From the NCBI GenBank assembly GCA_016302935.1, contig JAEDMO010000001.1, positions 141-64,140 of the forward strand: a stretch of 64,000 nt of DNA. The letters run 5' to 3'. The position numbers were made by a program, and so were the translations under genes. Shown here piece by piece: positions 2,370 to 43,637 of the stretch. The stretch's first letter is position 1, and every line of letters starts with the position of its first letter. The notes beneath the pieces were generated by a model, which ran no database searches, was not told where the DNA came from, and was given only the letters and a program-made list of their open reading frames with translations. The stretch comes from Bacilli bacterium (lineage in GTDB: Bacteria > Bacillota_I > Bacilli_A > RF39 > UBA660).

Positions 2370-3773
2370 CTACCTTCCTATTATGTAAGGACTATCTATA
2401 GTTCCTTCGCCGGATAATGCTATTAAACTGCCATCTAAGTATATTACGGGACGTAGCTTTGATTTTTGATCTATTTTAGAAGTATATAAATTATATTCGC
2501 TATTTATTGTGTATAAGATATTATCCATATGGTCAGTAATGGCTAGCATAGTTAATACATCACTGTATGTATTTAGGTATAAATCTCCAACTTGTGGAAG
2601 TCCTACATATGTATCTATACTATCTTTATATACTAATCTATAGTCATATTCGTCAGTTTCATATTTTCCAGTATAAAATGGACCTTTTACTAAATATTCT
2701 TTGTTTTCTAATGTTTCATAATAATCATTATTTAAGAAGTATCCTATATTATAGTTTTTGGTTGGATTGTAGGTATTGTTTTTAGTTGAAAATATTTTTT
2801 CTATTGCTTTTTCTTCTTCTAGTATGTTACCTTCCAAGGCTACTTTAACTGAAGAAGCTGTTTTTGAAATAATACGCCAAGTTCTGCCACTATACTCAAG
2901 GTATTCACCTACACCAACATTTATTAGTTTATAGTCATCGTATTCATCTATATAGTATGGTTTTTGTATAGTACCATCACCACTATTTAAAATTAGGTCT
3001 CCTTTTATGGTAATTACTGGTCTTATTCCATAGTGATGTTTGTTATATTCAGAGGTAGTATTTATCCCACCTTTATCAAATACATAATATAATTCATTAT
3101 TTTGGTTAAAATCCATTAGCCAGAAATATGTGTTGTTGTTTAAAAAACCTTCATTGGCACCTGAATTTAGATAATCTTTTAAGTTTAATAAAGTTATTTG
3201 ATAATCTGATTTTGTAGCCTCACAGGTTACATTTTCTGTACTGGTAACTGTATCTTCACAATATTGTGTGTTTACTAAAATATCAGTATTATTTAGAGTT
3301 TTATAAAATAGTGAATATTCATCTATGTTATTTAAATAGTTATATAAATATGAATTTTGATATTCAATATCTTCACCATAAGGCATAAGTGTTTGTATTT
3401 CTTCACTAATTAGTACTATATTTTTATCTTTAGTTGTTTTTATAATACGCCATAATCTTCCAGAATAATATACAAAATTATTTTCTACCTGTCCCTTAAA
3501 ATAATATGTATTATCTTCATTTTTTATAAGACCATTTTCTTTTTGAATGAGAATGTCATCTTCTGGTAGGTATGTTAGTAGATGGTTATAAATTGAAATT
3601 GGCTCTGATATTTCGGTATCATCTACTATATTTGCTTCTAATCTATAATAATGTATAAATCTATAACCATATATAATAAAAAGAGAAGCAAGGGATACGA
3701 TGCTTATGGCTATAAATATTTTGTCTTTTCTAATTACTCTTCTCATAATTCTCCTTTTAAGCTCCAAAATCAT
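2370..3773 (-). CDS. Membrane-anchored protein of unknown function with internally duplicated extracellular domain
   Basis: 467 aa. N-terminal TM. Two ~210-aa repeats that each begin Y..GR.WRII and end RPVI..G.L...SG(D/E)GTI..PY.I. Overlaps the DUF4956 gene by 17 nt, so probably co-transcribed with it. Confidence 0.5.
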   Translation of the reverse strand: MILELKRRIMRRVIRKDKIFIAISIVSLASLFIIYGYRFIHYYRLEANIVDDTEISEPISIYNHLLTYLPEDDILIQKENGLIKNEDNTYYFKGQVENNFVYYSGRLWRIIKTTKDKNIVLISEEIQTLMPYGEDIEYQNSYLYNYLNNIDEYSLFYKTLNNTDILVNTQYCEDTVTSTENVTCEATKSDYQITLLNLKDYLNSGANEGFLNNNTYFWLMDFNQNNELYYVFDKGGINTTSEYNKHHYGIRPVITIKGDLILNSGDGTIQKPYYIDEYDDYKLINVGVGEYLEYSGRTWRIISKTASSVKVALEGNILEEEKAIEKIFSTKNNTYNPTKNYNIGYFLNNDYYETLENKEYLVKGPFYTGKYETDEYDYRLVYKDSIDTYVGLPQVGDLYLNTYSDVLTMLAITDHMDNILYTINSEYNLYTSKIDQKSKLRPVIYLDGSLIALSGEGTIDSPYIIGR

Positions 3774-4428
3774 TTTGATAACTTATAACACTTGCACTTA
3801 TTATGCCTTCTACATTTTTAAATTTGTCTAATATTTCGGTATGGTTATCTTTTAATTCTACTTCAAAGGTTGTTTCTATAATATCTTTGGTAACAGATTT
3901 ACTTTTTAGTTTGTGTTTTGGCAATTTATTAATGTATTTCATTACTTGTTCATCCATATTTAATTCATATTTTACAACAAATAAATACTTGCTATTTTTC
4001 TTAAATCCTAGGGAATAACTAACAAAGTATAGTAAGCCTAATGCTACTGATGATATTATGGCGATTAGGTAAAGACCTGCTCCAGACATAATACCAATTG
4101 TAATAGCCCAAAACATAAAGGCTGTATCTACTGGTTCTTTAACGGCTGTTCTAAAACGAACGATGGATAATGCTCCGACCATCCCTAATGATAAAGCTAA
4201 GTTGGAATTAATTGTTCTGATAATCAACGATGTAACCATACCAAGTAGCATTAAACATAATGCAAATGATTTGGAATAAACTACTCCGTTATATGTTTTT
4301 TTATAAACATATATGATAAATAAACCGATGATAAAGGCCGTTATTAATGATAAGGCCATATCCGTTATACTTACTGTGCCCGTAAATTCATTTAAGACAC
4401 TTTTTTTTATTAAATCTACAAATCCCAT
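3757..4428 (-). CDS. DUF4956 domain membrane protein
   Basis: 223 aa, multi-TM. Sequence character and adjacency to VTC-domain and CotH genes match the conserved DUF4956-VTC-CotH triad. Confidence 0.6.
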   Translation of the reverse strand: MGFVDLIKKSVLNEFTGTVSITDMALSLITAFIIGLFIIYVYKKTYNGVVYSKSFALCLMLLGMVTSLIIRTINSNLALSLGMVGALSIVRFRTAVKEPVDTAFMFWAITIGIMSGAGLYLIAIISSVALGLLYFVSYSLGFKKNSKYLFVVKYELNMDEQVMKYINKLPKHKLKSKSVTKDIIETTFEVELKDNHTEILDKFKNVEGIISASVISYQNDFGA

Positions 4429-4440
4429 TTCTATACTCCT

Positions 4441-5121
4441 TTATTTTAAATTTCTGCAGGTAGCAAATTTTGAATATGCTTCCCTATTTAATGATACTGT
4501 TGATAATATAATAGCTATCATCTCAGGTAATATTTCATTATATTTTACTTCTAAAACTAGATAATCGTCATCTATGACACTAGCATAATTAACACTTTTG
4601 TCAAAAAGATCATAATTATACACTCCAGATTTTATTTCGCTATCAAAAGTTATTCTAACTTCTGAAACTGGATATGTATAGGCTAATCTTTTATAATCAA
4701 CTATTACTGAAGGGGCTAGTTTTTTAGTCTTCATATCGATTATAAATTTTTTTAAGATATCGTTTTTGGATATATCTATATCATCAATATTACCATTTAT
4801 TATTTTACTACAAATCTCTTTGGTTATCAATACTGATTCTTTACTAGTCATGTTATTATGTTTGTATTTGCATTCTAATCTGATGAAATTGTCATCTTGA
4901 TTATAGATTCTAATTCTATATTTTTTTCGATATTCTACTCCATCTAATTTTTCGTAGTAAGCGGTATTTTGTGGATCGTCAAAGTAGAGCGATCTTATTT
5001 GATATGTATTATCTTCATTATATGAATTTTTATCTATATCCATGATAGTTTTTAATTTTTGTTTTAATATTTCACCAGTGTTTTTGCTGATCATATATTT
5101 TATCTCGTGTCTATATTTCAT
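4441..5121 (-). CDS. VTC domain (polyphosphate polymerase domain-like) protein
   Basis: 226 aa. MKYRHEIKY ... YRKKYRIRIYN ... LECKYKH resembles the VTC/CYTH-like domain. Overlaps the CotH gene stop/start by 4 nt. Confidence 0.65.
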   Translation of the reverse strand: MKYRHEIKYMISKNTGEILKQKLKTIMDIDKNSYNEDNTYQIRSLYFDDPQNTAYYEKLDGVEYRKKYRIRIYNQDDNFIRLECKYKHNNMTSKESVLITKEICSKIINGNIDDIDISKNDILKKFIIDMKTKKLAPSVIVDYKRLAYTYPVSEVRITFDSEIKSGVYNYDLFDKSVNYASVIDDDYLVLEVKYNEILPEMIAIILSTVSLNREAYSKFATCRNLK

Positions 5122-7994
5122 AATAAATCACCAAAATACTTTTTCATTTCAGATTCACTTAATCCAAAGAAAGATTTTGTTTGATTTAACATTATTGGTG
5201 TTCTTTTTTTGATATAGTTCCTTAATCTGTTTACATTGTCTTCCCAATTTTCCATAGTTATATTCCATCTTTCACAATTTCTAGGCATTTCTTTTTTATA
5301 TATTTGATATAATTCTTCTAATTTTTTGCTTAGTTTTTCATAAGTCCATATGTTGTTTAGGTTGTAGGATAATCTTTCTACATATCTTTTTTTGAATTCA
5401 TTATTTTTCATTAAATTTCTTAATACTGTGGTAGGTATTTGAAGTCTACTCATTGGGGTTGCACTAGTTGAAAATATATAGTAATTTTTAGTTACATTAA
5501 ACATCGCCCAATCTAAGTCGTAGAAGATAGCTCGCATTTTTCCATCATTAATATCCGGATGAGAATAAAATCTAGCATTTACTATATCGTTATTGGTGGT
5601 GTATGTTTCGGCAATCCAAAAATCTATTATGCTATCTATATCTATTTTTGTTTTTATGTATTCGTAATTTTTTTGATCTGCCATATTATGGTTACTTAGA
5701 TAGTTAACTATTTCTTTATACCAAGTGGTGCTTCCACATGTGACATTATTATCTATCCTTGTGATGTTTACTTTATCTTCAGATACATTATAGTGGTTTG
5801 CTATAAATTCTGATTCTATTTTTTCTCTAATATTATATATTCCCCAGTATGTTCCATTAATATATAGTATGATTGTTTTATACGCTTGAACTTCTACTGT
5901 TTCTAGTTCTTCTAATGTTGAGGTCATAAAAATATCAGCGAAAGCTGCATATTCATAATCTGTTGATGCACTTCTTAAAACCAAGGTATCAAATGAAGAA
6001 AAGTCTCTGTTATTAAAAACTTGGTAATTTAATTTACTAGCACCATATTCGCTTCTAAACTTTAATTGAAAGCTTTTTTTGGGTAATCCTCTAGTAGTGC
6101 CTCCGAATAGTTTTATTCCACATGGAATGCTGAATGAACTATTTTCTTCAAATAGTTCCGCGTATGCTGTTCTTTCTACTTCCCCACTATAGGTATTACT
6201 TTGAATTCTATTAAAATCTGATTGTTTTAATGATAAAGATAAAACTGGCAGAGTATGATTTTCATTTATTATGTATGATGAGGTAACTACCTCGCTCGGT
6301 AATTTATTATCTTCATAGCTTACTACTTTTAAAACACTAGTCTTGTTTAAAAAAATGGGACTGTTATATTTTTTAGATGATCTATTTGGAATGCTTCCAT
6401 CTAACGTATAATATATTGTCCCATTACCTTTTATTTCTATGCTAATATTTTGTACATCATTATATATTCCAGGAGCTACATTAATAATTGGTGTGTATGC
6501 TATTTGGTTTGTCCCGTTTTTGTTTTGGCTTTTTGGGGTGGGATTGCTGAAATAATATATTCCCGATTTTGTTCCTCTTCCCATACTGTAGCCAAGAGGA
6601 ACATTAGCAATGAAAATAGAATCTATTATTTTGTTATCTTTGGTTAAGTAAAGGCTTTCTATTTCAGATAATTTAAAATTTGTATGTTTGTACGTATTAT
6701 TGGATAAGTTGGTATCCCCAGAAGCCATTACTACATAGTACCCTCCAGGTTTTAGTGAAACATCTGGAAGATTATACATCGTTTTTAGATTATCGTTTGT
6801 GGTTAGATAGTAATCTTTTAGATTGATTGTTTTTTGTGTGTTATTTTTTAATTCTATCCAGTCGTAGTAATTACCTCCATTTTGAGGTAGGTACTCATTA
6901 TTTTGGTTCATAACTTCACTAATAATTAAATCGTTAGGATTGGTTAGATTTTTTTCATTAAAATTTTTTATACCACTGTTATTATTAGGGTAGCCGGGAG
7001 TTATATTATTGCTTATGTAATACTCTTCATTTTCATATATTAAGGCCATACCATTGGCTACTTGGTCATATTCTACTATATCTACTATTTTGTTGCCATT
7101 ACTTAATACTACTTCTCCAGTTTTTTCGGTTAATTTAAATCCAGTATAATTGTTTGAAACGCTACTTGTTGCAGTATAAAAAACATATACTTCTCCACTT
7201 TTTAGTGATATATCTGGTAATTTATAAGTAAATGGATGCTTAGTTGAATTTGATAGACTGTAAGTTTTTAGGTTAACTGTATTTTTGGATATATTAATTA
7301 TTTCGATATATCCTTCTAATTTACCGTTTTCATTTATGAAATTTCCTTTATTTCTTGGTAATATTTCATTTATTTTTATTTTATTTTCTTCGCTTTTTAG
7401 GCTATTTATATAATTTTCATAGCCTTGTTTTGTGTTAGGAAAACCTGGGGTTGGTAAATCTGATGTATATAGATTGCCGTTTAGATCCCTAGCGATTGTT
7501 TCGTTTTTATCAAGAGGCGTTACGGTAATGGCATCTATTACTTTACCATTAGCTTTGGTTAATACAAGCGTTTCTCCACCTTTTGAACTTAATCTAAAGT
7601 TAGCGTATAATCCTTCTTTTTTTTCACCGCATAGATTTATTATCAAATATTCTTTGGCTTTTATAATTGTTTCTGGAAATACCCATTTTATTTTACTTTT
7701 ATCGTCAGATAATCCATAATTTTTTAAGTTAATGTCATAATTATTCCCATTATAAAGTTCAACCCAATCATATTGGTTGCCATCTACATCGGCATATGTT
7801 CCTTTATTAGAAGACATGATTTCATTAATTATTAATTTGTTAATCTTTGATTCGCCATCGGGTTCATTTTCTTTAATCGTCAATTTTTTATTTGTATCAG
7901 TATCAATTGCTATTCCCACTATTATACCTAACACCACAACAGATAGGCATATTATGATAAAATGTAGGTTGTTTTTTAAAAATTTTGTATTCAT
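5118..7994 (-). CDS. CotH kinase family protein with three lamin-tail domains and a chitobiase/hexosaminidase-C-like domain
   Basis: 958 aa. N-terminal TM. Three repeats of the INE(I/V)M...YDW(V/I)EL(Y/K)N type (lamin-tail domain). A GIYNDVQNISIEIKGNGTIYYTLDGSIP segment (CHB_HEX_C-like). C-terminal half reads as a CotH domain. Confidence 0.75.
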   Translation of the reverse strand: MNTKFLKNNLHFIIICLSVVVLGIIVGIAIDTDTNKKLTIKENEPDGESKINKLIINEIMSSNKGTYADVDGNQYDWVELYNGNNYDINLKNYGLSDDKSKIKWVFPETIIKAKEYLIINLCGEKKEGLYANFRLSSKGGETLVLTKANGKVIDAITVTPLDKNETIARDLNGNLYTSDLPTPGFPNTKQGYENYINSLKSEENKIKINEILPRNKGNFINENGKLEGYIEIINISKNTVNLKTYSLSNSTKHPFTYKLPDISLKSGEVYVFYTATSSVSNNYTGFKLTEKTGEVVLSNGNKIVDIVEYDQVANGMALIYENEEYYISNNITPGYPNNNSGIKNFNEKNLTNPNDLIISEVMNQNNEYLPQNGGNYYDWIELKNNTQKTINLKDYYLTTNDNLKTMYNLPDVSLKPGGYYVVMASGDTNLSNNTYKHTNFKLSEIESLYLTKDNKIIDSIFIANVPLGYSMGRGTKSGIYYFSNPTPKSQNKNGTNQIAYTPIINVAPGIYNDVQNISIEIKGNGTIYYTLDGSIPNRSSKKYNSPIFLNKTSVLKVVSYEDNKLPSEVVTSSYIINENHTLPVLSLSLKQSDFNRIQSNTYSGEVERTAYAELFEENSSFSIPCGIKLFGGTTRGLPKKSFQLKFRSEYGASKLNYQVFNNRDFSSFDTLVLRSASTDYEYAAFADIFMTSTLEELETVEVQAYKTIILYINGTYWGIYNIREKIESEFIANHYNVSEDKVNITRIDNNVTCGSTTWYKEIVNYLSNHNMADQKNYEYIKTKIDIDSIIDFWIAETYTTNNDIVNARFYSHPDINDGKMRAIFYDLDWAMFNVTKNYYIFSTSATPMSRLQIPTTVLRNLMKNNEFKKRYVERLSYNLNNIWTYEKLSKKLEELYQIYKKEMPRNCERWNITMENWEDNVNRLRNYIKKRTPIMLNQTKSFFGLSESEMKKYFGDLL

Positions 7995-8067: not shown

Positions 8068-8090
8068 AAAAAAGTCCTAAATTTTAGGAT
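8068..8090 (-). terminator. Intrinsic terminator after the 74-aa gene
   Basis: tcctaaa/tttagga hairpin overlapping the stop codon, followed on the - strand by a T-run (an A-run on the + strand). Confidence 0.45.
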
Positions 8091-8308
8091 TTATAGATGA
8101 CTTTCTTTTTATTTTCTTCTTGTAGTCTAGCAAGATAATCTTTTTTTACTGTTATTGCAGAATGTATTAGTTTGTGGTCTTTATCATATTCTAAAATACT
8201 ACTTCTTACTGACTCTTCTTCTGTTTCAACTTCGTTATCATTTTCATCATAGTAAAATATGCAAGTGTATTCCCCGCCATTGGGAGTAGGTCCTTTAATT
8301 TCTTTCAT
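8084..8308 (-). CDS. Small acidic hypothetical protein (candidate immunity/partner of the upstream large protein)
   Basis: 74 aa. Starts 38 bp downstream of the 842-aa gene and is followed by a terminator. No recognisable family. Confidence 0.4.
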   Translation of the reverse strand: MKEIKGPTPNGGEYTCIFYYDENDNEVETEEESVRSSILEYDKDHKLIHSAITVKKDYLARLQEENKKKVIYKS

Positions 8309-8346: not shown

Positions 8347-10875
8347 TTATTTTTTTGAAAAATTAGGTTGGACTACTTCACTTAAAAATATATCATGAAT
8401 AATTTTTGCTCTGTTTGGATATTTTTGGTTAAATTTTTCAAATCCATTACGTTCTATATAAGCTAGAGAATCAGCGTAATCTTCAATTAATAATCCACGT
8501 TTTTGAAAATGATCTTGCCCGTAACTATAGTTGCTTCCTTCTTTATGTGGTATCCAAGAATTGTCTGCATTTACAGCCTCCGGCCAATATTGACTACTTG
8601 ATATCCAATGTTGAGGGTCTGCGAGGTGACCCATTTCGTGTAACACTGATCCGTAATGAAATTTGTTATTAACTACCTCATTTGCATTATATAATACGAT
8701 GGTTTTCTCCTTTTGATAAGATGCTGCATATACATTGATTCTTTGCTCAAGCTTGCCAGTAATAACGACATTAATCAATCCTGTTTTATTGTATATTGCT
8801 GGGTATTTATTTTTTAAATATTCAAACACCGCCATTTGTTCTTTTAAAAATGTGTAATCAGCATCAACCATTGATTCGTCAATATAATACATAACACCAT
8901 GCCCATACTTATCAATATCAGAACTTTCATAATATGTGTAGTATTTATTTGTACTGGATGGATTTTCTATTTTAAACGTTGTTTCGTTTATAGTTACTTC
9001 ATTTATATTTGCTGCATTAAATCTTGATTCTACCATTAAATAAGTTAATGCTTTGTTGATATCTTCTGGCTCAACAGTTATGATAGTTTTATTGCCATAG
9101 TAATCACTATATTCAAATTCTACTGTTTTTTTGTTGTTAATGCAATTCTGAAAGAATTCAAGATATGATGGATTTTGACTAATTAATCTTTTTATTCTTT
9201 CTACATTAAACGACATACTATCTGAAGTTTTTGTTTCTTCTATATTATCATAGGTGCCGTACGGAAATGCAATAGTCTTGGCCTCACAATATTCTTCAAT
9301 AACTTTGTTAACTTCCATTTTGATAATTTTATCTTTTACTTTAATATATACTTCTTGGGCTCCTGTTAAAACTGCTGACCATAAGAAACCAATTATAAAG
9401 GCTTTCCCTGCTTCGTCATTTAATTTATCCATATCTATAGGTTCCCCTAATATGAACGCTGATGCACCGGCATTCATATATGTCTGCAAGGATTCTCCAA
9501 CTCCTGCTTTTAACATTTTACTTAATGTATGTGCACTATCGCTATTTAAATATGGAATATTTCCCAATAATCTTGTCACAGCATAATATGAAGCACCAAT
9601 AGCCAGTCCATAAACACTCGACTCTACTAGTCCATGTCCATTGATTAATGCTTGGTTTTTAGCGTTTCCTGCAGCACTTGCACCGCCTAATACTTGTGCA
9701 ACCGTAGCTCCTGCTGCTGGGGTTGCTACAGCACTCACCAATATAGATGCCGCAATTGTCGGCGTCATTCCTCCTATGGTGTTGCCTACATTATATCCCC
9801 CTTTTACCCAATTAGTATCTTTTATTGCTTCTAGTATATACATTTGAGCATATTGGTTTTGAGATATTATACCTTCTGTAGCAAACACATTAACTATTCC
9901 ATCAGCAAAATTATCTATGCCATCAATTACCCCCTTACCCGTACCTGTTAGTGTGGAAAGAGCATTTTCATTTATTTTTCCATCTGAATCTGTTATTAAT
10001 GAAAGAAAATTGTCTGCTTCTATTTTCCCAGCATTTCTGTTTAATCTATCTTGTATGTCTCTTATATAATTATCTGCTGCAAATGGGTTTTTGGTTTCAC
10101 ATAAATAGCAATACATATTTTTTTCTGATTCAGTCAGCGTTCCGCTTGGATATTTTCTTTCTAAATCAAAGGTATAGTGACTATCAAAATATGCAATTTT
10201 TTTATCATTTTCTCTTTTCTTTACCCATTCTTGAAATTCTTTGGTTTCCATAATTTCTAAATATGGTAGTTCCTTTTTTTGTTGAATTGCTAAATATCTT
10301 TGCATTTTTAATTCATTGCTTGATATATATAATTCATCCTTTTTTTTCAAATATTCTTCATATGTCATTCCTACAATCTCTTCATATTGAGCTTCAAAAT
10401 TTTTTTTATAACCTGCTTCTACTGCTTTGATTGTCTCATTTACCTCTGCTTCCCATTTAGTTTCATCAAATTCATAGTTTTCATCAAAACACTTATTTGG
10501 ATCTAATCGGGCAATTCTTTCGTATAAATATTCTTCTGGTGTCATATAGTAAGGATTTAAAGGTTCCGTTCTTACAAGGCCGTATTCTTCTCCATGTTTT
10601 AAAAAATTTTGATGTTTTTCTATTAAATCTTTATATTCATTATCAATTTGAGATATCGTTTTATCTAGCGTTTCTATATATTCATCTGCAAATAACATTT
10701 CATTTGCAACTGTATTTGAATTATTATTATAACTTTCATAATCTACTTCTATATTGTATTCATCTGGAATTGCTATGTCTTTAATTTTTGTTACATTTTG
10801 ACTGTTTATATTACTAGATGAGTCTTTTTTTAGATTAAATTTAGATGTATCTACATTAAAATTAAATTGAGACAT
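8347..10875 (-). CDS. Large protein with Gly/Ala-rich (glycine-zipper-like) hydrophobic core and C-terminal HExxH metallopeptidase-like motif; candidate secreted effector/toxin
   Basis: 842 aa. No signal peptide. Central ~150-aa Gly/Ala-rich stretch (GGMTPTIAASILVSAVATPAAGATVAQVLGGASAAG ... GLAIGASYYA ... IIGFLWSAVLTGA). C-terminal VLHEMGHLADPQHW motif. Own promoter-like element upstream. Confidence 0.5.
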   Translation of the reverse strand: MSQFNFNVDTSKFNLKKDSSSNINSQNVTKIKDIAIPDEYNIEVDYESYNNNSNTVANEMLFADEYIETLDKTISQIDNEYKDLIEKHQNFLKHGEEYGLVRTEPLNPYYMTPEEYLYERIARLDPNKCFDENYEFDETKWEAEVNETIKAVEAGYKKNFEAQYEEIVGMTYEEYLKKKDELYISSNELKMQRYLAIQQKKELPYLEIMETKEFQEWVKKRENDKKIAYFDSHYTFDLERKYPSGTLTESEKNMYCYLCETKNPFAADNYIRDIQDRLNRNAGKIEADNFLSLITDSDGKINENALSTLTGTGKGVIDGIDNFADGIVNVFATEGIISQNQYAQMYILEAIKDTNWVKGGYNVGNTIGGMTPTIAASILVSAVATPAAGATVAQVLGGASAAGNAKNQALINGHGLVESSVYGLAIGASYYAVTRLLGNIPYLNSDSAHTLSKMLKAGVGESLQTYMNAGASAFILGEPIDMDKLNDEAGKAFIIGFLWSAVLTGAQEVYIKVKDKIIKMEVNKVIEEYCEAKTIAFPYGTYDNIEETKTSDSMSFNVERIKRLISQNPSYLEFFQNCINNKKTVEFEYSDYYGNKTIITVEPEDINKALTYLMVESRFNAANINEVTINETTFKIENPSSTNKYYTYYESSDIDKYGHGVMYYIDESMVDADYTFLKEQMAVFEYLKNKYPAIYNKTGLINVVITGKLEQRINVYAASYQKEKTIVLYNANEVVNNKFHYGSVLHEMGHLADPQHWISSSQYWPEAVNADNSWIPHKEGSNYSYGQDHFQKRGLLIEDYADSLAYIERNGFEKFNQKYPNRAKIIHDIFLSEVVQPNFSKK

Positions 10876-10947
10876 GTTAATTTACACCTTCTTTCTTAAT
10901 TTGTTGTTAATCTTGAAAATTGTTAGTATTTTAAGGCTTTCCGACTT

Positions 10948-10976
10948 ATTTTATAAGTTCATTCTAAAACTTGCAA
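10948..10976 (-). promoter_or_regulatory. Sigma-A-like promoter for the 842-aa gene
   Basis: On the - strand: TTGCAA, 17-nt spacer, TAAAAT. Lies about 70 nt upstream of the ATG at 10875. Confidence 0.4.
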
Positions 10977-11586
10977 TTTAATATTGAAGTCTGCTGAAAA
11001 ATTCTTTTCTATATTTATTATGGTATTATAGATTTTTTTGCTGTAGAAATAATGTTGACTATAATCAATAGCACTCTTTTGTTCAATAATTATCGTAATT
11101 TGATGATAGTTCTGTATTTAATGTATAATCTAATTTTTTTTAATATTATATTCATCCACTACTATTAATTTTTCATTAACATTTTGTTTTTCTTTGTTTA
11201 ACTAATACCTCATTATTAATAGAAATGATACCAAGCATATATTATAACGCTTCTTCGAAAAGGCGATATTATTATATTCATTAAACCTTGTTTTAAATAA
11301 CTATTCCTATTTTCAAATTGCTGTCTTAACTGGGTATAAAAAATTGCAAATTATTAGATTTTCTAATCAGCTAAAAGAAAAGGATATTGATTCTATAATA
11401 GTTCGCGGTTTAACTAATAGACCTTCTAATAATTCACTTTCCACCAAAGAATTTGAATTTATTAAGAACTTTAAGAATAAATATCCAGTTATTAGTATAT
11501 CACAATTTCAAGATATTTATCATGAAGATGTTATTTGAAATCCAAAAATGAAAAATAATTTTTTAATTGTGCTTTTATTTTATATA

Positions 11587-13455
11587 TTATCTTTTAACTA
11601 GTGTTTTAACAATAGCATGGTTTATAGTACCACTGATAGTTTTTGTAGGTTCACCATACTTTTTGTCATACTTGACTATCCACTGTAGTAAGTCATCAAA
11701 TTTTTTATATTCTTCTTTTTGTTTTTGTCTTGTACTAGATGAATAGCCTCTAGTGGAACTTGAGCCTATTTCTAAGGTAACTATTTTTATATTTTTATTT
11801 ACTGGATTATAATATTCTTTATGTTTATCAATATCATTATATATTAATAATGGGTCTCCATTATAAGTTAAACGGCCATAAAAGTCACTGAAGATAAATC
11901 CTGATGCTACTTCTGTTGCATAATCTGATAGGCTTCCTTCTCCGCCTCCTCTTAATTCTTTTTCTTCGTTTATTTTGCTATATCCTATGTGTTTTCTAAT
12001 GGCATCTCTAAAATGAGCGGATTTACTGGTTTTGTTTTTCTCATCATATAATTTACCACCATATACTCCTTTTCCTGATTGGTGATAATCTATTAGGTAT
12101 GAAGCAGTAGGAATATATTTATTTAAAACTGCCATTACGGCTTGGGTTTCAGATTCACTTCCTAAATATGGCCCACAGTAGTGTGAATATGAAGGTTTTT
12201 CTTCATATCTTGAGTGGCTGTTGCCAAATTTATATTGCATCGCATTAGAGGTAGGAAAATTTCTTCCTATATCAACATAGTTGGCGTTGGCTTTTAGACT
12301 ATATTTTCCGTTTATTACCATTTCACGTCCATCTGGATTAACACAAGGAATTGCTACAAATTTATAATCGGTTAATATTTTTTTAGCATTTTCTTCTGTT
12401 TCTGCTTTTCTTACTAGGTCGCTTAATCCTTTTAATATATATGATGGTCCGGCGGTTTCTCTAGCGTGAACTCCTCCTGTTAAAATTATTGTTTTACTGC
12501 CAGTACCTACTTCTAGTAGATATATTTTTCTTCCTTGTTCACTATAGCCTGCGATATATGTTTTGACCATACTATGTCTGGTTAGATTTTCAACAAAGTT
12601 ATCAATATCTTTGTATGAATAATACTTGCTTATATCATAGTCAATATCTTCGTAAGTTCCACTTGATACTACTTCTTTAAATGTTTTATTTTTTGTACTT
12701 TGATATTCATTTGTAGGCATTCCCTTGGCTAAAAATTCACCTTCAGTCGTTTGTTCATTCATTTTTTCAATCGATTCAGCAGCGTAGGTTATATTTGATT
12801 CGTTGTTTAGAATTTGACTTATGGCATTTTTATACATTGAACTAACATTTTCTACTGTAATTGGTATGACATTCCAATTATATTTTAATTCATTATCTTC
12901 TATTTCAATAAATGGTAAGTTATTAATTTTGACTTTCGTAGCAGTTGTTTCACTCGATATCCCATTGTTTATTGCTTTTGTTTTGTTTTGAATATCAGTT
13001 AACCCTTCTATTTGCTGAGCTATATTAGCTCCTATTTGAATAATTATTGAATCCATGCTACAACCAGTTCCTGTAGCATTACTTTGAGCTTTTGATAATA
13101 TATCCAATGTTTCTTTTATTTTATTTATAGATTTTTGGCAATCATCACTGTTATATATTAAATACTTATTTTTATATGGTATATCATTTTGCTCTAAAAT
13201 TGTATCTAATTTGATAAAATAATTATTATTAATTTCTGTACAACTAAGTATAGTATCTTCTAAAGCGTTTACTTTTTTACGATCATTAGTAATATATTCT
13301 ATGAATGTTTTTATATTATCATCATTCCAATAACTTTCTACTTTTTCAGCGTTTATATATATCTGTTCTTGACCTTCTATGTATGAATTAATCTTACTTT
13401 TTAGGTTTTTATTTTCTTCTATTGAAGATTGTATATTTATACGAAAAGATATCAT
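11587..13455 (-). CDS. Candidate T7SS effector: N-terminal helical (LXG-like) region fused to an M14 zinc carboxypeptidase (gamma-D-Glu-DAP peptidase-like) domain
   Basis: 622 aa. No signal peptide. Residues ~300-600 carry the complete M14 site: GGVHARETAG (HxxE), CVNPDG, IDYHQSG (second His) and TLEIG (catalytic Glu). The start overlaps the upstream 100-aa gene by 4 nt (ATGA). Confidence 0.65.
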   Translation of the reverse strand: MISFRINIQSSIEENKNLKSKINSYIEGQEQIYINAEKVESYWNDDNIKTFIEYITNDRKKVNALEDTILSCTEINNNYFIKLDTILEQNDIPYKNKYLIYNSDDCQKSINKIKETLDILSKAQSNATGTGCSMDSIIIQIGANIAQQIEGLTDIQNKTKAINNGISSETTATKVKINNLPFIEIEDNELKYNWNVIPITVENVSSMYKNAISQILNNESNITYAAESIEKMNEQTTEGEFLAKGMPTNEYQSTKNKTFKEVVSSGTYEDIDYDISKYYSYKDIDNFVENLTRHSMVKTYIAGYSEQGRKIYLLEVGTGSKTIILTGGVHARETAGPSYILKGLSDLVRKAETEENAKKILTDYKFVAIPCVNPDGREMVINGKYSLKANANYVDIGRNFPTSNAMQYKFGNSHSRYEEKPSYSHYCGPYLGSESETQAVMAVLNKYIPTASYLIDYHQSGKGVYGGKLYDEKNKTSKSAHFRDAIRKHIGYSKINEEKELRGGGEGSLSDYATEVASGFIFSDFYGRLTYNGDPLLIYNDIDKHKEYYNPVNKNIKIVTLEIGSSSTRGYSSSTRQKQKEEYKKFDDLLQWIVKYDKKYGEPTKTISGTINHAIVKTLVKR

Positions 13456-13754
13456 AATATGCCTCCTGTACTGATAGAGTTATTGCTTTTTTCTAGTTCA
13501 GATAATTCGGTTAATCTAGCTATTTCTTGCTCTATTTGGGGCATAGCATTGCTAATGGCATTAATATCTGCTTCTATATTTTGTTTGATATTAGTTAGTT
13601 CTTTGTTCTTATATAACTCTCCGTTAATATTTAAGCCTATTTCATTTAATTTTTTTATGCTTTCAATATTACTTGCACATACTTGTAAACAACTCTGAAC
13701 TATTTGTAATTTGTCTATTAATTGTTTTAATTTGTTTATTTCTTCTTCCATCAA
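13452..13754 (-). CDS. Small helical protein, candidate effector-targeting/adaptor (Lap/DUF3958-like) factor
   Basis: 100 aa, predicted all-helical. Translationally coupled to the M14-domain gene. This position is typical of small partner proteins of LXG toxins. Confidence 0.45.
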   Translation of the reverse strand: MMEEEINKLKQLIDKLQIVQSCLQVCASNIESIKKLNEIGLNINGELYKNKELTNIKQNIEADINAISNAMPQIEQEIARLTELSELEKSNNSISTGGIL

Positions 13755-13802
13755 AAATCCTCCTGTTTTTAAACAAACGCTAATATTTTATTAGCATTTA
13801 TT

Positions 13803-13834
13803 TAAAAACAACAATATGTTATTGTTGTTTTTTT
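13803..13834 (-). terminator. Intrinsic terminator downstream of the 236-aa WXG-like gene
   Basis: aacaacaata/tattgttgtt hairpin flanked by A- and T-runs, immediately after the stop at 13836. Confidence 0.5.
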
Positions 13835-13835
13835 C

Positions 13836-14546
13836 TTAATGGTTACTTACACCGCTTCCTATATTTGTAGCAGCTTGTCCCATTTCACCTGATGCTGTAG
13901 TATCCGCTTCACTATAACCAGTATCTGTGTGTTGATCTACATATTCCATTAAGTCATCGATATCCGTATTTAACCTTTTTATTGTTTCTCCTACAGCTTC
14001 AATAAATTGATCAATACTTGCTGTTTGATTTCCAAAGAAAGCTTGGCAAGATTCATATTCACTGTATATGTTTTTAATGCCTGTTTCAATTTCAGTTTTA
14101 TATTCTGTTAAAGCTGTTTCTATTAATGCTCCACCGCCGGTTACAATCCCCAATTTTTCTCCAGCAAATTTATTTTCATTTAATTTAACAACACTCTTCA
14201 TATCAATCAAATTAATGGCGGGAGCAGTAAAATCATAATTTACGGTTGCTACTGAGGTATCGATTCTATTATTATTTTGAAATTCTTGCCATGCATTTGC
14301 TAAATTCACAATCGTTTGAATCATGTTAGTAACTAATCCTGTGGTCTTGTCATATAATGTGTTTATACGATCTGCGATTGTTTTTTCATATGCTTGTTCG
14401 TCGACCCCTTTCCAATTATTTTGCATTACTTTTGGAATGTTAGGCCACCCATGTGAAATTGTTTCTCCTACTTTTTCATAGCTGTTAGCTATATCTTGCA
14501 TTAGTTCTTGAATTTTCTCTGGTTGATAACCGATAAATCCATTCAT
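13836..14546 (-). CDS. WXG100-like domain protein with C-terminal extension (candidate T7SS substrate or LXG-associated adaptor)
   Basis: 236 aa. MQNNWKGVDEQAYEK carries a W-x-G motif at about residue 45 inside a helical N-terminal ~100 aa. Lies 15 bp downstream of the esxA-like gene. Confidence 0.5.
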   Translation of the reverse strand: MNGFIGYQPEKIQELMQDIANSYEKVGETISHGWPNIPKVMQNNWKGVDEQAYEKTIADRINTLYDKTTGLVTNMIQTIVNLANAWQEFQNNNRIDTSVATVNYDFTAPAINLIDMKSVVKLNENKFAGEKLGIVTGGGALIETALTEYKTEIETGIKNIYSEYESCQAFFGNQTASIDQFIEAVGETIKRLNTDIDDLMEYVDQHTDTGYSEADTTASGEMGQAATNIGSGVSNH

Positions 14547-14561: not shown

Positions 14562-14873
14562 CTAAAATTGGTTTGAGTTTGCAGAATCTAAATTGGCTTT
14601 TACTGTATCATCTTGTTCTTTATAACTCTTCACAACTTCTTCAATAGTAATATAGTAGTTAATATTATTATTATCAATCATCTTGGTATATTTGAATTCA
14701 TTAGAAATTTTATTTGTTATGAATGACAAATCATTACCCTCATAACAACTCTCTAATACTTTGATTTGCTTATTTAATTCCATTTCTAAATCTTCTACTA
14801 ATATCTGTTGTCCTTCTATTTTTGTTTGGATTTCTTCCATACCTTCGTAATTTATTCCTCGAATACTTATCAC
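14562..14873 (-). CDS. WXG100 family (EsxA-like) protein, YxG variant
   Basis: 103 aa. A central ESCYEGNDLSF (Y-E-G) stands in for the W-x-G turn. Length and helical character are right, and it directly follows yukD/essC. It has its own consensus promoter. Confidence 0.55.
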   Translation of the reverse strand: MISIRGINYEGMEEIQTKIEGQQILVEDLEMELNKQIKVLESCYEGNDLSFITNKISNEFKYTKMIDNNNINYYITIEEVVKSYKEQDDTVKANLDSANSNQF

Positions 14874-14957: not shown

Positions 14958-15212
14958 TTAAATGAGAATTATCCTACTTCCATTAACTATTTCGGTATCT
15001 CTAATGATAACATCTGATTGATAGGTTTTCCCACTTGAAGTATCGATGATAATGTGGGTATTAATTGGATCAAATGATATATCTTGTAATTCGCTTATAG
15101 ATTTTGATAATAGAATAGTTAATTGACCTATTCTAATGTTAATAGGAATATATATATTATATTCTTCTTGTATTGTTGGCACATATACCTTTACTAATAT
15201 TTTATTCTTCAT
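14958..15212 (-). CDS. esaB: YukD/EsaB ubiquitin-like T7SS protein
   Basis: 84 aa. Sequence pattern resembles the YukD ubiquitin-fold family. Overlaps the essC stop by 11 nt. Confidence 0.65.
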   Translation of the reverse strand: MKNKILVKVYVPTIQEEYNIYIPINIRIGQLTILLSKSISELQDISFDPINTHIIIDTSSGKTYQSDVIIRDTEIVNGSRIILI

Positions 15213-41873: not shown

Positions 41874-43637
41874 TTATTTATTTAATTTATACATCCATTT
41901 TTCGTAGATGTTTGCACTGGCACTGCTTGGTTTTGGTGATGGCAGTTCCATTTTGACAATCATCGGCAGTTTCATCATTTTGCCAAAGGCTATACATGTT
42001 CCTGATTGAAGTGATTTTTGTTTTTCAATAATATCCGAGCTTATATTAGGAACCATTTTTTCAATGTAATCTAGGTCGGTAGGATGATTTATTTTGAATA
42101 TTAAGAAGTTAGAACATTGTGATAATACATTTTCTGATAGTTCTGTTGGTCTTTGGGTTATTAAATCAATAATAACGCCATATTTTCTACCTTCTTTGGC
42201 TATTCTTTCAAAGATATTATATCCCAGTGTTTGAATATCAAAGTCTTTTTGAACATATCTATGGGCTTCTTCTAACATGATATGGATAGGGAATGATCCT
42301 CTTTCTTGAAGACTTCTAGCAAATTTAAATATTAGTCTTGAATATATTTTTACTAGTGCTTTGGCCATTCTATCATCAATATCTTCTAAAACGAAGTTAA
42401 TTATTTGGCATCTTTTGTTTTCTTTTGTTATTATTAATTCATTGAAATATTGATTTAGAGTAATAAATCTATCATAGGCGAAGAATTTTTTATATGAGCT
42501 ATTGCATATTGTATGTAGTTTTACTTTTAGTGCTATTGCTTCGGCATAATATTTTTCGTTTAGTAATAATCCTTCTGAGATTAGAGTGAAGTTTAGAGCT
42601 TCTTCTAGGTTATCTAGTGTATAGAATACTGGTTCATATTCTTCATTCCACTTAGTATCTGGTTCTAAAAATCCTTCTATGTATTGAGTTACTAATAATC
42701 TTTCTACGAAATCTCCTTTAGAATCGATGTCAAAGCATTTTCTTAATTTTCTAGTATATCCTACTCCTTGAATTTCTACATCAAGATTTAGTTCTTTTGT
42801 TTTACAGGTAGTTAAGATGTTAAATATTTGGTCTCTTATTCTAGCTGATGTTTGATTGGTGTATAAAACCGATATTATAGCACTAGAGATTAGATGGTTT
42901 TTGTAGCGATGAGAATATTCATCATCCTTAGCAAAAGCACTTACATAAATAAGCATTTTATCGATAATATTAATTTGTGAATAATCGGTCACATCTAAGA
43001 GATTGGCAAAATCATCAGTTGTAAGATGCCATAGGGGTATTTTGATTAGTGGTGTTTTACTTTGATTAGTATTACTTGTAAACATTTTATAGTTAAAATT
43101 AGGGTTATATTCACTAATTTTAGAAAAAGCGTTGTCGTATTCGTTTGTTGAATTGAAAATAAATATATTAGAGTAAAAGGGAATAATATTTTTTTTGGTA
43201 AAGAGATTTTGAACAAGTCTAGAAACTCCAAATGTTTTGCCGGAACCTGTGTTACCAAATATTGCTGTGTGATTGGAAAACATATCGTTTATATCGATAT
43301 ATATTGGAGCGTTTTTATATAGTGGCGATAGGCCTAAAATCATATTGTTATCAGTTTCTGTACCAATTAGTAGTTTTAGTTCTTCGTCGTTAATTATTCT
43401 TATTTGGGAATTCAAAGATGGTTTTCTAATAATTCCACTTAAAAATTTATTGTTTATAAATTCACCTAAGAAATTTATTTTTACTTGATTTTGGTCAACT
43501 TCACTTATTTCTCCTAATATTTTTTTATCATTATCTTCAAATATTACATAATAATTTAAGATATCTTCACTGAACACATTGTTATCTATAATTACTAGAG
43601 CATTATTTTTATTGATACTTAAAATTTGTTTAAACAT
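41874..43637 (-). CDS. HerA/FtsK-like (DUF87-type) ATPase
   Basis: 587 aa. N-terminal HAS-barrel-like region, Walker A GNTGSGKT, Walker B-like HIMLEEAHRY and an ITQRP motif. Confidence 0.55.
   Translation of the reverse strand: MFKQILSINKNNALVIIDNNVFSEDILNYYVIFEDNDKKILGEISEVDQNQVKINFLGEFINNKFLSGIIRKPSLNSQIRIINDEELKLLIGTETDNNMILGLSPLYKNAPIYIDINDMFSNHTAIFGNTGSGKTFGVSRLVQNLFTKKNIIPFYSNIFIFNSTNEYDNAFSKISEYNPNFNYKMFTSNTNQSKTPLIKIPLWHLTTDDFANLLDVTDYSQINIIDKMLIYVSAFAKDDEYSHRYKNHLISSAIISVLYTNQTSARIRDQIFNILTTCKTKELNLDVEIQGVGYTRKLRKCFDIDSKGDFVERLLVTQYIEGFLEPDTKWNEEYEPVFYTLDNLEEALNFTLISEGLLLNEKYYAEAIALKVKLHTICNSSYKKFFAYDRFITLNQYFNELIITKENKRCQIINFVLEDIDDRMAKALVKIYSRLIFKFARSLQERGSFPIHIMLEEAHRYVQKDFDIQTLGYNIFERIAKEGRKYGVIIDLITQRPTELSENVLSQCSNFLIFKINHPTDLDYIEKMVPNISSDIIEKQKSLQSGTCIAFGKMMKLPMIVKMELPSPKPSSASANIYEKWMYKLNK

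Follow-up and report, generated by a model that had tools for sequence, protein, structure and literature searches.

A gene at a minimal type VII secretion locus of an uncultured Bacilli bacterium that looks like an export-route switch for a Sec-secreted carboxypeptidase

What is a zinc carboxypeptidase doing at the end of a protein encoded beside a type VII secretion system (T7SS) locus? The question is raised by a 622-amino acid (aa) protein of a Bacilli bacterium (GTDB lineage Bacteria; Bacillota_I; Bacilli_A; RF39; UBA660). Its gene lies in contig JAEDMO010000001.1 of the GenBank assembly GCA_016302935.1, of which positions 141 to 64,140 of the forward strand (64,000 nucleotides, referred to below as the window) were analysed. 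The window is chromosomal and AT-rich (~28% G+C). A first-pass annotation had recognized three minus-strand open reading frames (ORFs) of 236, 100 and 622 aa, and had read them as a T7SS effector module whose last member, without a signal peptide, carries a peptidoglycan-cleaving payload. The three ORFs are present (Table 1) and the 622-aa protein does begin with a hydrophilic N-terminus. Its payload is a copy of a Sec-secreted enzyme from a housekeeping locus, and the fusion looks like a natural export-route switch, not a cell-wall toxin. With slightly better than even confidence, the gene is taken to encode a chimeric substrate of a lineage-specific T7SS, by which the bacterium re-routes its own Sec-secreted carboxypeptidase.

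Cargo acquisition and the minimal T7SS export signal in the Firmicutes have mostly been inferred from old and diverged fusions, such as the LXG toxins and LipY. In the present case the donor and the product are still ~98-99% identical and the breakpoints are known to the codon.

Origin and nature of the M14 segment

The first 279 residues of the 622-aa protein, used as a query, matched just two entries, P0001 (447 aa) and P0002 (450 aa); P-numbers denote proteins and L-numbers denote contigs or assemblies. Both are the same M14 protein, with a hydrophobic signal peptide replacing the ~219 N-terminal residues. P0001 is encoded in the order cotE-two-component system-M14-secDF, near spoVA, and P0002, from a related species with 78% DNA identity, in the order cotE-M14-secDF-rpsB. 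Neither locus has T7SS genes. The cotE...secDF locus is shown by twelve more assemblies. By blastn, positions 7928-9180 of L001 correspond to window positions 12797-11545 at 98.0% identity. In 13 assemblies the 1254-bp segment is 98.0-98.9% identical to the cotE-secDF gene. The end points are identical in 12 of these, the other being cut by a contig end, and the rest of the Sec-locus contigs holds no other match to the window.

The 5′ edge of the homology is sharp and lies five codons before the predicted signal-peptidase site (N-I-T-Y-A/A-E, cleaved at the slash). The window reads ...L-N-N-E-S/N-I-T-Y-A-A-E-S... across the junction, marked here by the slash, where the Sec copy reads ...L-N-T-V-P/N-I-T-Y-A-A-E-S.... 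The 3′ edge lies 42 bp past the stop codon, inside the terminator hairpin of the source gene. As the edges of homology coincide with these positions, the 622-aa ORF is a fusion in which 219 N-terminal residues are joined in frame to the mature Sec enzyme. The ~290-aa helical N-terminus described earlier was drawn too long, since everything from aa 220 onward is the mature part of another gene. The N-terminal part is predicted to have a domain of ~180 aa with two hairpins (aa 1-178), followed by disorder and a single helix (aa 204-217).

The fusion recurs. At least seven other assemblies cross the 5′ junction: six contigs with the 236-aa gene (L085-L090), from six other samples, match the window at 99.2-99.7% identity, and L103 (99.6% identity) was retrieved with a 24-mer specific to the junction. 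Two of these, L085 and L103, extend across the 3′ junction into the spacer as well, and the P0001 cluster members P0087 and P0089 are likewise 622 aa long. An assembly chimera is ruled out, with at least seven assemblies from different assemblers crossing the same junction. The segment is present in none of the 80 essC-related loci from a genome scan, and a search of species-representative genomes with the 622-aa protein returned nothing. Among the sequences compared, the M14 cargo is peculiar to this species.

The captured enzyme belongs to the M14 peptidases, with a match to Pfam Peptidase_M14 (PF00246) of 97 bits against a cut-off of 21.6 (E-value 2e-27) over aa 289-483. The zinc ligands H330, E333 and H458 and the glutamate E562 of the LEIG motif are intact and family-conserved, as are G245 and M246 in the N-terminal subdomain of the mature enzyme. 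The earlier statement that every catalytic element was intact holds for the ligands and the glutamate. It was slightly overstated, because the position of Arg127 of carboxypeptidase A is occupied by Lys388 across the M14 clade. The enzyme shares the M14 fold, the HxxE...H ligands, the catalytic glutamate and extracellular Sec relatives with carboxypeptidase T of Thermoactinomyces vulgaris (1obr), but differs from it in this lysine and in a ~70-residue N-terminal segment of its own.

The assignment of the domain to the gamma-D-glutamyl-diamino-acid peptidase style did not survive comparison. The clade profile matched carboxypeptidases B, B2 and O (E-values 1e-24 to 1e-22) and carboxypeptidase T (7e-20) over most of the catalytic domain, whereas MpaA (5hxd) was matched at 6e-11 over 80 residues only. 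The NCBIfam MpaA model (NF007897) scored 35.5 bits against a cut-off of 157, over aa 366-459 only. This comparison took in MpaA and left out the Lysinibacillus endopeptidase I subfamily. The 67 M14 relatives are annotated as M14 or hypothetical proteins, and almost all start with a signal, lipoprotein or anchor sequence. Their other annotated domains are a few extra C39-like or Flg_new domains, and none of the 67 has a LysM, SH3b or peptidoglycan-binding domain.

These results bear on the proposal that the module is an interbacterial toxin of the LXG/Lap type, cleaving the peptidoglycan of neighbouring walls. The proposal is drawn from the linkage to a T7SS, a helical N-terminal domain, two small helical genes upstream and an intact set of zinc ligands and catalytic glutamate. 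It could also call on the weak partial MpaA match, and on the polymorphic-toxin-like genes that do occur in these loci. Peptidoglycan specificity and a toxin role are nevertheless unsupported, because carboxypeptidases B, O and T fit the domain best and its relatives, free of LysM, SH3b and peptidoglycan-binding domains, nearly all have Sec signals. The payload is 98-99% identical to a housekeeping Sec enzyme in other assemblies. The module is not LXG, DUF3130 or DUF3958 by sequence, and the tails of the N-domain family are of low complexity. As had been stated, there is no immunity gene downstream: a scan of positions 10876-11586 (711 bp) revealed no minus-strand ORF longer than 26 aa. Its absence is better explained by an enzyme that is harmless to a producer already secreting it. 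With the same enzyme already leaving the producer by way of Sec, an immunity protein would not be needed and a toxin role is unlikely. A toxin of this kind is thus considered very improbable.

The other proposal made for the M14 domain was that of a helper resembling EssH, which would trim wall peptides at the secretion site for the apparatus or its substrates. There is precedent for this, as the assembly of the Staphylococcus aureus T7SSb across the wall needs a dedicated hydrolase (PMC13059805). EssH is a CHAP amidase/peptidase with a Sec signal peptide that is required for EsaA assembly (PMC13059805). The two are alike in that a hydrolase is genetically tied to a T7SS locus. Unusual accessory functions are conceivable in a locus without EsaA, EssA and EssB, and an enzyme on a conserved substrate would be concentrated at the machine. 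The architecture is nonetheless different: in the 622-aa protein Pfam finds M14 only, with no CHAP domain and no Sec signal, the enzyme is fused to a substrate domain, and no EsaA is found in the locus. Since no relative in the clade has a hydrolase in that position, the system evidently works without one. Furthermore, the M14 clade bears no sign of peptidoglycan action and Sec already delivers the same enzyme to the wall. A helper function is regarded as improbable.

The operon and its N-domain family

Table 1. Features of the module and its T7SS locus in the window (position 1 is the first letter of the window)
Feature	Position	Strand	Basis or remarks
EssC-type T7SS ATPase, 1523 aa	15202-19773	-	Pfam FtsK_SpoIIIE 2.4e-43, FHA 3.4e-5
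84-aa protein at YukD/EsaB position, overlaps essC end	14958-15212	-	position and size
103-aa helical protein at EsxA position, Y-E-G replaces W-x-G	14562-14873	-	family alignment, synteny
236-aa tandem WXG-like protein	13836-14546	-	W45-K-G47, F170-F-G172, Y211-S-E-A-D215 (YxxxD/E)
Two tandem AT-rich hairpins, each with a U tract, terminator- or attenuator-like	13769-13831	-	folding
99-aa helical partner protein	13452-13751	-	100 aa if TTG at 13754 is used
622-aa fusion gene	11587-13455	-	
N-domain, aa 1-219 of the 622-aa protein	12798-13455	-	two helical hairpins; W-N-D turn; L-K-Y-N-W at 190-194
1254-bp captured segment: mature part of Sec-type M14 carboxypeptidase (aa 220-622) and 42 bp of 3′ flank	11545-12797	-	blastn
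669-bp AT-rich non-coding spacer, fusion gene to 842-aa gene	10876-11544	.	ORF scan
842-aa protein, Gly/Ala-rich hydrophobic centre, C-terminal HEMGH zincin-like motif	8347-10875	-	sequence
74-aa conserved small protein, closes module	8084-8308	-	alignment

The claimed linkage to a T7SS stands, with essC, a YukD-like and an EsxA-like gene upstream in an order that recurs; membership in the LXG/Lap families is not supported by sequence. On the minus strand, ychF-rpsF-ssb-rpsR is followed by essC and then by the 84-aa, 103-aa, 236-aa, ~99-aa and 622-aa genes. The canonical T7SSb neighbours EssA, EssB (YukC) and EsaA (YueB) were not found by Pfam next to essC, where the upstream genes are rpsR-ssb-rpsF-ychF. 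The protein is 62-64% identical to EssC proteins of uncultured Bacilli/Mycoplasmatota metagenome-assembled genomes (MAGs). The gene is intact in five of the six full-length same-species assemblies. At 1-649 of L103, where essC would be expected to continue, the sequence is unrelated to the window, and could represent a structural variant or a chimeric contig. It has also been noted that MAGs titled Muribaculaceae, Bacteroides and Bacteroidaceae (L004, L005, L008, L009, L023, L028 and L062) carry Firmicutes-type essC loci, 39-62% identical to the essC of the window; these contigs are probably mis-binned.

The 84-aa protein has no match in Pfam. Homologues at 23-52% identity adjoin the essC match in most of 80 related loci, and come immediately after it in every locus with ORFs listed; the position and size of the protein suggest a YukD. 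The 103-aa protein is without a Pfam family and has syntenic homologues at 30-38% identity. In relatives, essC is followed in a fixed order by genes for proteins of 84-91, ~100, ~240 and ~80 aa, by the gene for the N-domain protein and by a ~75-aa gene, with a very large protein sometimes intervening between the last two. This order is kept in all loci with known context (L003, L004, L007, L021, L043 and L105), down to 26% identity. As it is constant in relatives, the 236-aa and 99-aa genes belong to the fixed part of a T7SS operon specific to the lineage. They are not a mobile or variable LXG/Lap toxin cassette.

The 236-aa protein does contain the bona fide W-x-G motif attributed to it, W45-K-G47, in six of six family members. 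The second aromatic-x-Gly motif and the YxxxD/E motif after the last helix are also kept in all six. Its match to WXG100 (PF06013) is weak (E-value 8.1e-5, 23.3 bits against a cut-off of 27.3), and weak matches of this kind are given by three of the six members. An AlphaFold2 model from three sequences suggests two helix-turn-helix hairpins at low confidence, with a predicted local distance difference test (pLDDT) score of 51. The predicted terminator after this gene was confirmed by folding, which revealed two AT-rich hairpins with U tracts. Their minimum free energy is -25.1 kcal/mol (z -7.3), a value that none of 200 shuffles equalled. A consensus terminator scan missed them because it demands three G-C pairs.

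The middle gene exists as described, except in its length: an AGGAGG 7 nt ahead of the ATG at 13751 makes that codon the more likely start, which yields 99 rather than 100 aa. As had been reported, its stop codon and the start codon of the 622-aa gene overlap (ATGA). Its last codons contain a second AGGAGG, 7 nt ahead of that start codon. In L003, L004, L007, L021, L043 and L105 the same position is occupied by a gene of 79-86 aa. The 99-aa family has only weak, sub-threshold YwqH-like matches in Pfam, and such matches range from E-values of 0.002 to 0.35 over the 236-aa and 99-aa families. Neither family matches the Lap1/Lap2 models DUF3130, DUF3958 and TIGR04197, as searched with Pfam for the families and with NCBIfam for the two window proteins. 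The N-domain, 236-aa, 99-aa and 103-aa families were also considered as mutual paralogues, and this found no support, with profile-profile probabilities below 3%.

The N-domain belongs to a rare family. A phmmer search with residues 1-219 against 1.84 billion representatives found ten proteins or clusters in all, one of which, at 122 aa, is a fragment of the same gene. In each of the nine full-length relatives a ~200-residue N-domain is followed by a low-complexity Ser/Thr/Asn/Asp tail of 100-330 residues, and no enzymatic domain was found in any of these tails. Since every full-length member has such a tail and no enzyme, the family is not polymorphic-toxin-like. The tails of P0006-P0014 contain degenerate ~20-residue repeats of the form N-[IV]-S-[IV]-S-x-x-[DE]-D-Y-S... 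(for example P0008, aa 330-498), and have neither an LPXTG motif nor a transmembrane segment.

Within the N-domain, W43, D45 and Y192 are the same in all members, and the sequence L-K-Y-N-W is found close to its end. The AlphaFold2 model (pLDDT 81.5) predicts two helical hairpins with a short strand before each and the W-N-D motif at the first turn. The best Foldseek matches in the PDB are the TelA-LXG/LapA3/LapA4 complex (8gmh; probability 0.97-0.99) and PPE41, with E-values of ~0.1 that are not significant. Profile searches against LXG, DUF3130 and DUF3958, which had been suggested as a check of the N-terminus, gave no membership, and no protein of the module belongs to these families in Pfam or NCBIfam. 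The 622-aa protein has no LXG (PF04740) match at an E-value of 1 or below, nor is LXG among the 20 families listed for the ten N-domain members. Three of the ten have sub-threshold WXG100 matches. The N-domain profile retrieved coiled-coil noise only from PDB sequences, and no match of PE/PPE standard was found.

In layout, the module may be said to resemble the LXG/Lap and PE/PPE systems, although by sequence it belongs to neither family. With the LXG/Lap proteins TelA, TelC and TelD of Streptococcus intermedius (PMC9600955; 8gmh) it shares a ~200-aa N-domain, predicted here to be helical, that precedes a functional C-terminal part, a pair of small helical genes immediately upstream, one of them with an export-arm-like motif, and a location next to essC. 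This motif is FxxxD in Lap1 and YxxxD/E here. The role of such motifs has been described (PMC9600955), and YxxxD/E recalls the export arm of T7SSa substrates. Unlike LXG proteins, the N-domain has W-N-D as its turn motif in place of L-x-G, and the larger partner is a 236-aa tandem-WXG protein. The normal C-terminus here is a low-complexity tail, there is no immunity gene, and the genes form a fixed operon core, not a variable cassette.

Mycobacterial PE/PPE proteins (LipY, PE_PGRS and PPE-MPTR) likewise join a helical targeting domain to a repetitive tail or, rarely, to an enzyme, and have a partner protein bearing YxxxD/E. LipY is a PE or PPE domain fused to a lipase. The present system differs from them in phylum and in T7SS type, and lacks PE/PPE sequence similarity. 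It differs also in that the Sec source gene is still ~98-99% identical, so that the capture can be reconstructed to the codon.

The core is comparable to the T7SSc-j systems of Garrett, Higginson and Palmer (2024), described as a minimal TsxC with FHA, a YukD-like TsxB and TsxA (PMC11217815). Small WXG100-like partners beside substrates are typical of such variant loci (PMC11217815). Both have a minimal core with WXG100-like partners and no EssA, EssB or EsaA. In contrast to T7SSc-j loci, the 13 ORFs between 189 and 19773 include no kinase, PPM phosphatase, TsxI, TsxJ, TsfV or EspG-like marker.

Two copies of one enzyme and the proposed export route

It is proposed that a single recombination swapped a low-complexity tail for a 1254-bp copy of the bacterium's own Sec-secreted M14 gene. 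By an in-frame start five codons before the cleavage site, the Sec signal would have been exchanged for a T7SS-type targeting domain. The N-domain would then pair with the translationally coupled 99-aa protein and with the 236-aa protein bearing the YxxxD/E export-arm-like motif. This could form a helical pre-secretion complex recognized by EssC, by analogy with Lap1/Lap2-LXG and PE-PPE, and the complex would carry the folded carboxypeptidase out of the cell. T7SS export, complex formation and any benefit of the fusion are presumed.

A wider reading, held tentatively and at somewhat less than even confidence, is that the N-domain and its fixed partners (the ~240-aa tandem-WXG protein with YxxxD/E, the ~80-100-aa helical protein and the ~75-aa small protein) constitute an undescribed PE/PPE-like substrate system of a minimal T7SS variant in uncultured gut Bacilli. 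The N-domain would then be a portable export module, with both routes coexisting and the copies still exchanging sequence.

Two M14 copies do appear to reside in one species and to exchange sequence, as contig breaks and shared polymorphism suggest. L086-L090 end 73-595 bp into the 1254-bp segment, the expected behaviour of contigs at a repeat. The fusion and Sec copies have variable sites of the segment in common, in a mosaic to which chimeric metagenome assembly of the two copies could have added. The segment is about ten times more diverse (98.0-98.9%) than essC in the same assemblies (99.76-99.96%). A nonsense allele, E602* (with G601D), by which the last 21 residues are lost, is found in the fusion copies of L085 and L103 and in the Sec copies P0091 and P0092. 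A frameshift had been considered for the 601-aa product of L085 (11092-12897) and was rejected: in L103 a truncation to this length is due to the E602* nonsense, and the Sec copy P0091 stops at the identical ...KKYD residues. The allele occurs in fusion and Sec copies alike; the 21 residues that it removes seem dispensable, and the loci appear to exchange sequence. The ORF is full length in the window, P0087 and P0089, and the early end in L085 and L103 is at E602* only.

Such exchange also fits the main rival explanation, in which the fusion is a neutral or decaying rearrangement. The recombination would have destroyed the usual tail of the substrate, the M14 part would be a harmless passenger repaired by gene conversion, and the protein would go unexported or have no role. 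The mosaic and the presence of E602* in both copies can be understood in this way, and by chance alone one junction in three would be in frame. What speaks against a passenger is that the ORF, the ribosome-binding site and the translational coupling are intact in every covering assembly. Moreover, the junction removes the hydrophobic core of the signal peptide almost exactly and keeps the mature N-terminal subdomain. Conservation of essC and the partner genes is 99.2-99.9%, and most strains have them intact. The explanation is considered unlikely.

Several observations weigh against the export-route switch, and some of these lend themselves to the passenger explanation. The 669-bp spacer left behind, against 35 bp at the equivalent place in L021, suggests an untidy event. 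The pN/pS ratio of nonsynonymous to synonymous polymorphism is 0.06-0.15 (window fusion copy against five Sec copies), but a low value is no proof of a useful fusion, because gene conversion could lend it the selection acting on the Sec copy. The co-residence of the two copies is deduced from contig breaks and shared polymorphism, not from one closed genome. The essC of one strain (L088, 4022-8593) has a nonsense mutation at codon 1415. Finally, EssA, EssB and EsaA were not found by Pfam in the 13 ORFs, a search confined to the locus. As the locus is without these homologues, the activity of the apparatus is unproven.

Minimal TsxA/TsxB/TsxC loci with WXG100-like partners (PMC11217815) and fusions of targeting domains with enzymes, such as LXG toxins and LipY, were already known. 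New are the rare, uncharacterized N-domain family with its repetitive tails and fixed partner set, and a recent, codon-resolved swap of a Sec signal for a T7SS domain with both donor and product extant. The export-route switch, if true, would amount to an experiment of nature, moving a folded, Sec-dependent exoenzyme to a T7SS by an exact exchange of signal peptide and targeting domain. It provides a testable pair, in which the same enzyme carries either a Sec signal or a ~200-aa T7SS domain with two candidate partners. The analysis also flags a rare substrate family in an abundant, uncultured gut lineage and corrects the unsupported idea of a peptidoglycan-targeting toxin.

Downstream genes and chromosomal surroundings

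The only ORF in the spacer is one of 64 aa on the opposite strand (11344-11538). The spacer is 99.7% conserved in L085 and is partly covered by L103. Outside the species, tblastx and blastn gave a single marginal match for it, over 55 bp of the tail-coding sequence of L021 (E-value 0.006), which might be a remnant of the lost tail. Rfam gave no family anywhere in the window, the spacer included.

The 842-aa protein beyond the spacer has no Pfam match. Its residues 58-507 are 36% identical to a 1072-aa protein of L021 (12948-16166), and the C-termini of the two differ. The position-equivalent 2209-aa protein of L043 (17934-24560) has an ADP-ribosyltransferase domain (PF03496, 5.8e-28). The large downstream protein, and not the M14 fusion, is more likely the polymorphic-toxin-like gene of the locus.

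The 74-aa protein has relatives of 70-88 aa (L003:2927-3139, L043:17636-17851, L021:16184-16420 and L105:9611-9862), with tblastn links among these. They are acidic, with the pattern F-Y-F-D-E...R-E-Y-D-E-x-G-E-L. As such a protein closes the module in every relative, whatever the large neighbour carries, it behaves as a conserved accessory and not as a cognate immunity protein.

On the chromosome, dnaA, dnaN and gyrB lie at 55-62 kb of the window; together with parB they span 53.5-61.7 kb, and the sign of the GC skew flips near 40-46 kb. The positions of the origin genes and of the skew change place the T7SS locus at most ~40 kb from the replication origin. A HerA/DUF87-type ATPase is encoded at 41874-43637. 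Directly downstream of the module, the minus strand at 3757-7994 encodes a CotH kinase-like protein (958 aa, with lamin-tail domains), a protein with a VTC domain and one with DUF4956, a cluster that looks spore-coat or polyphosphate-related.

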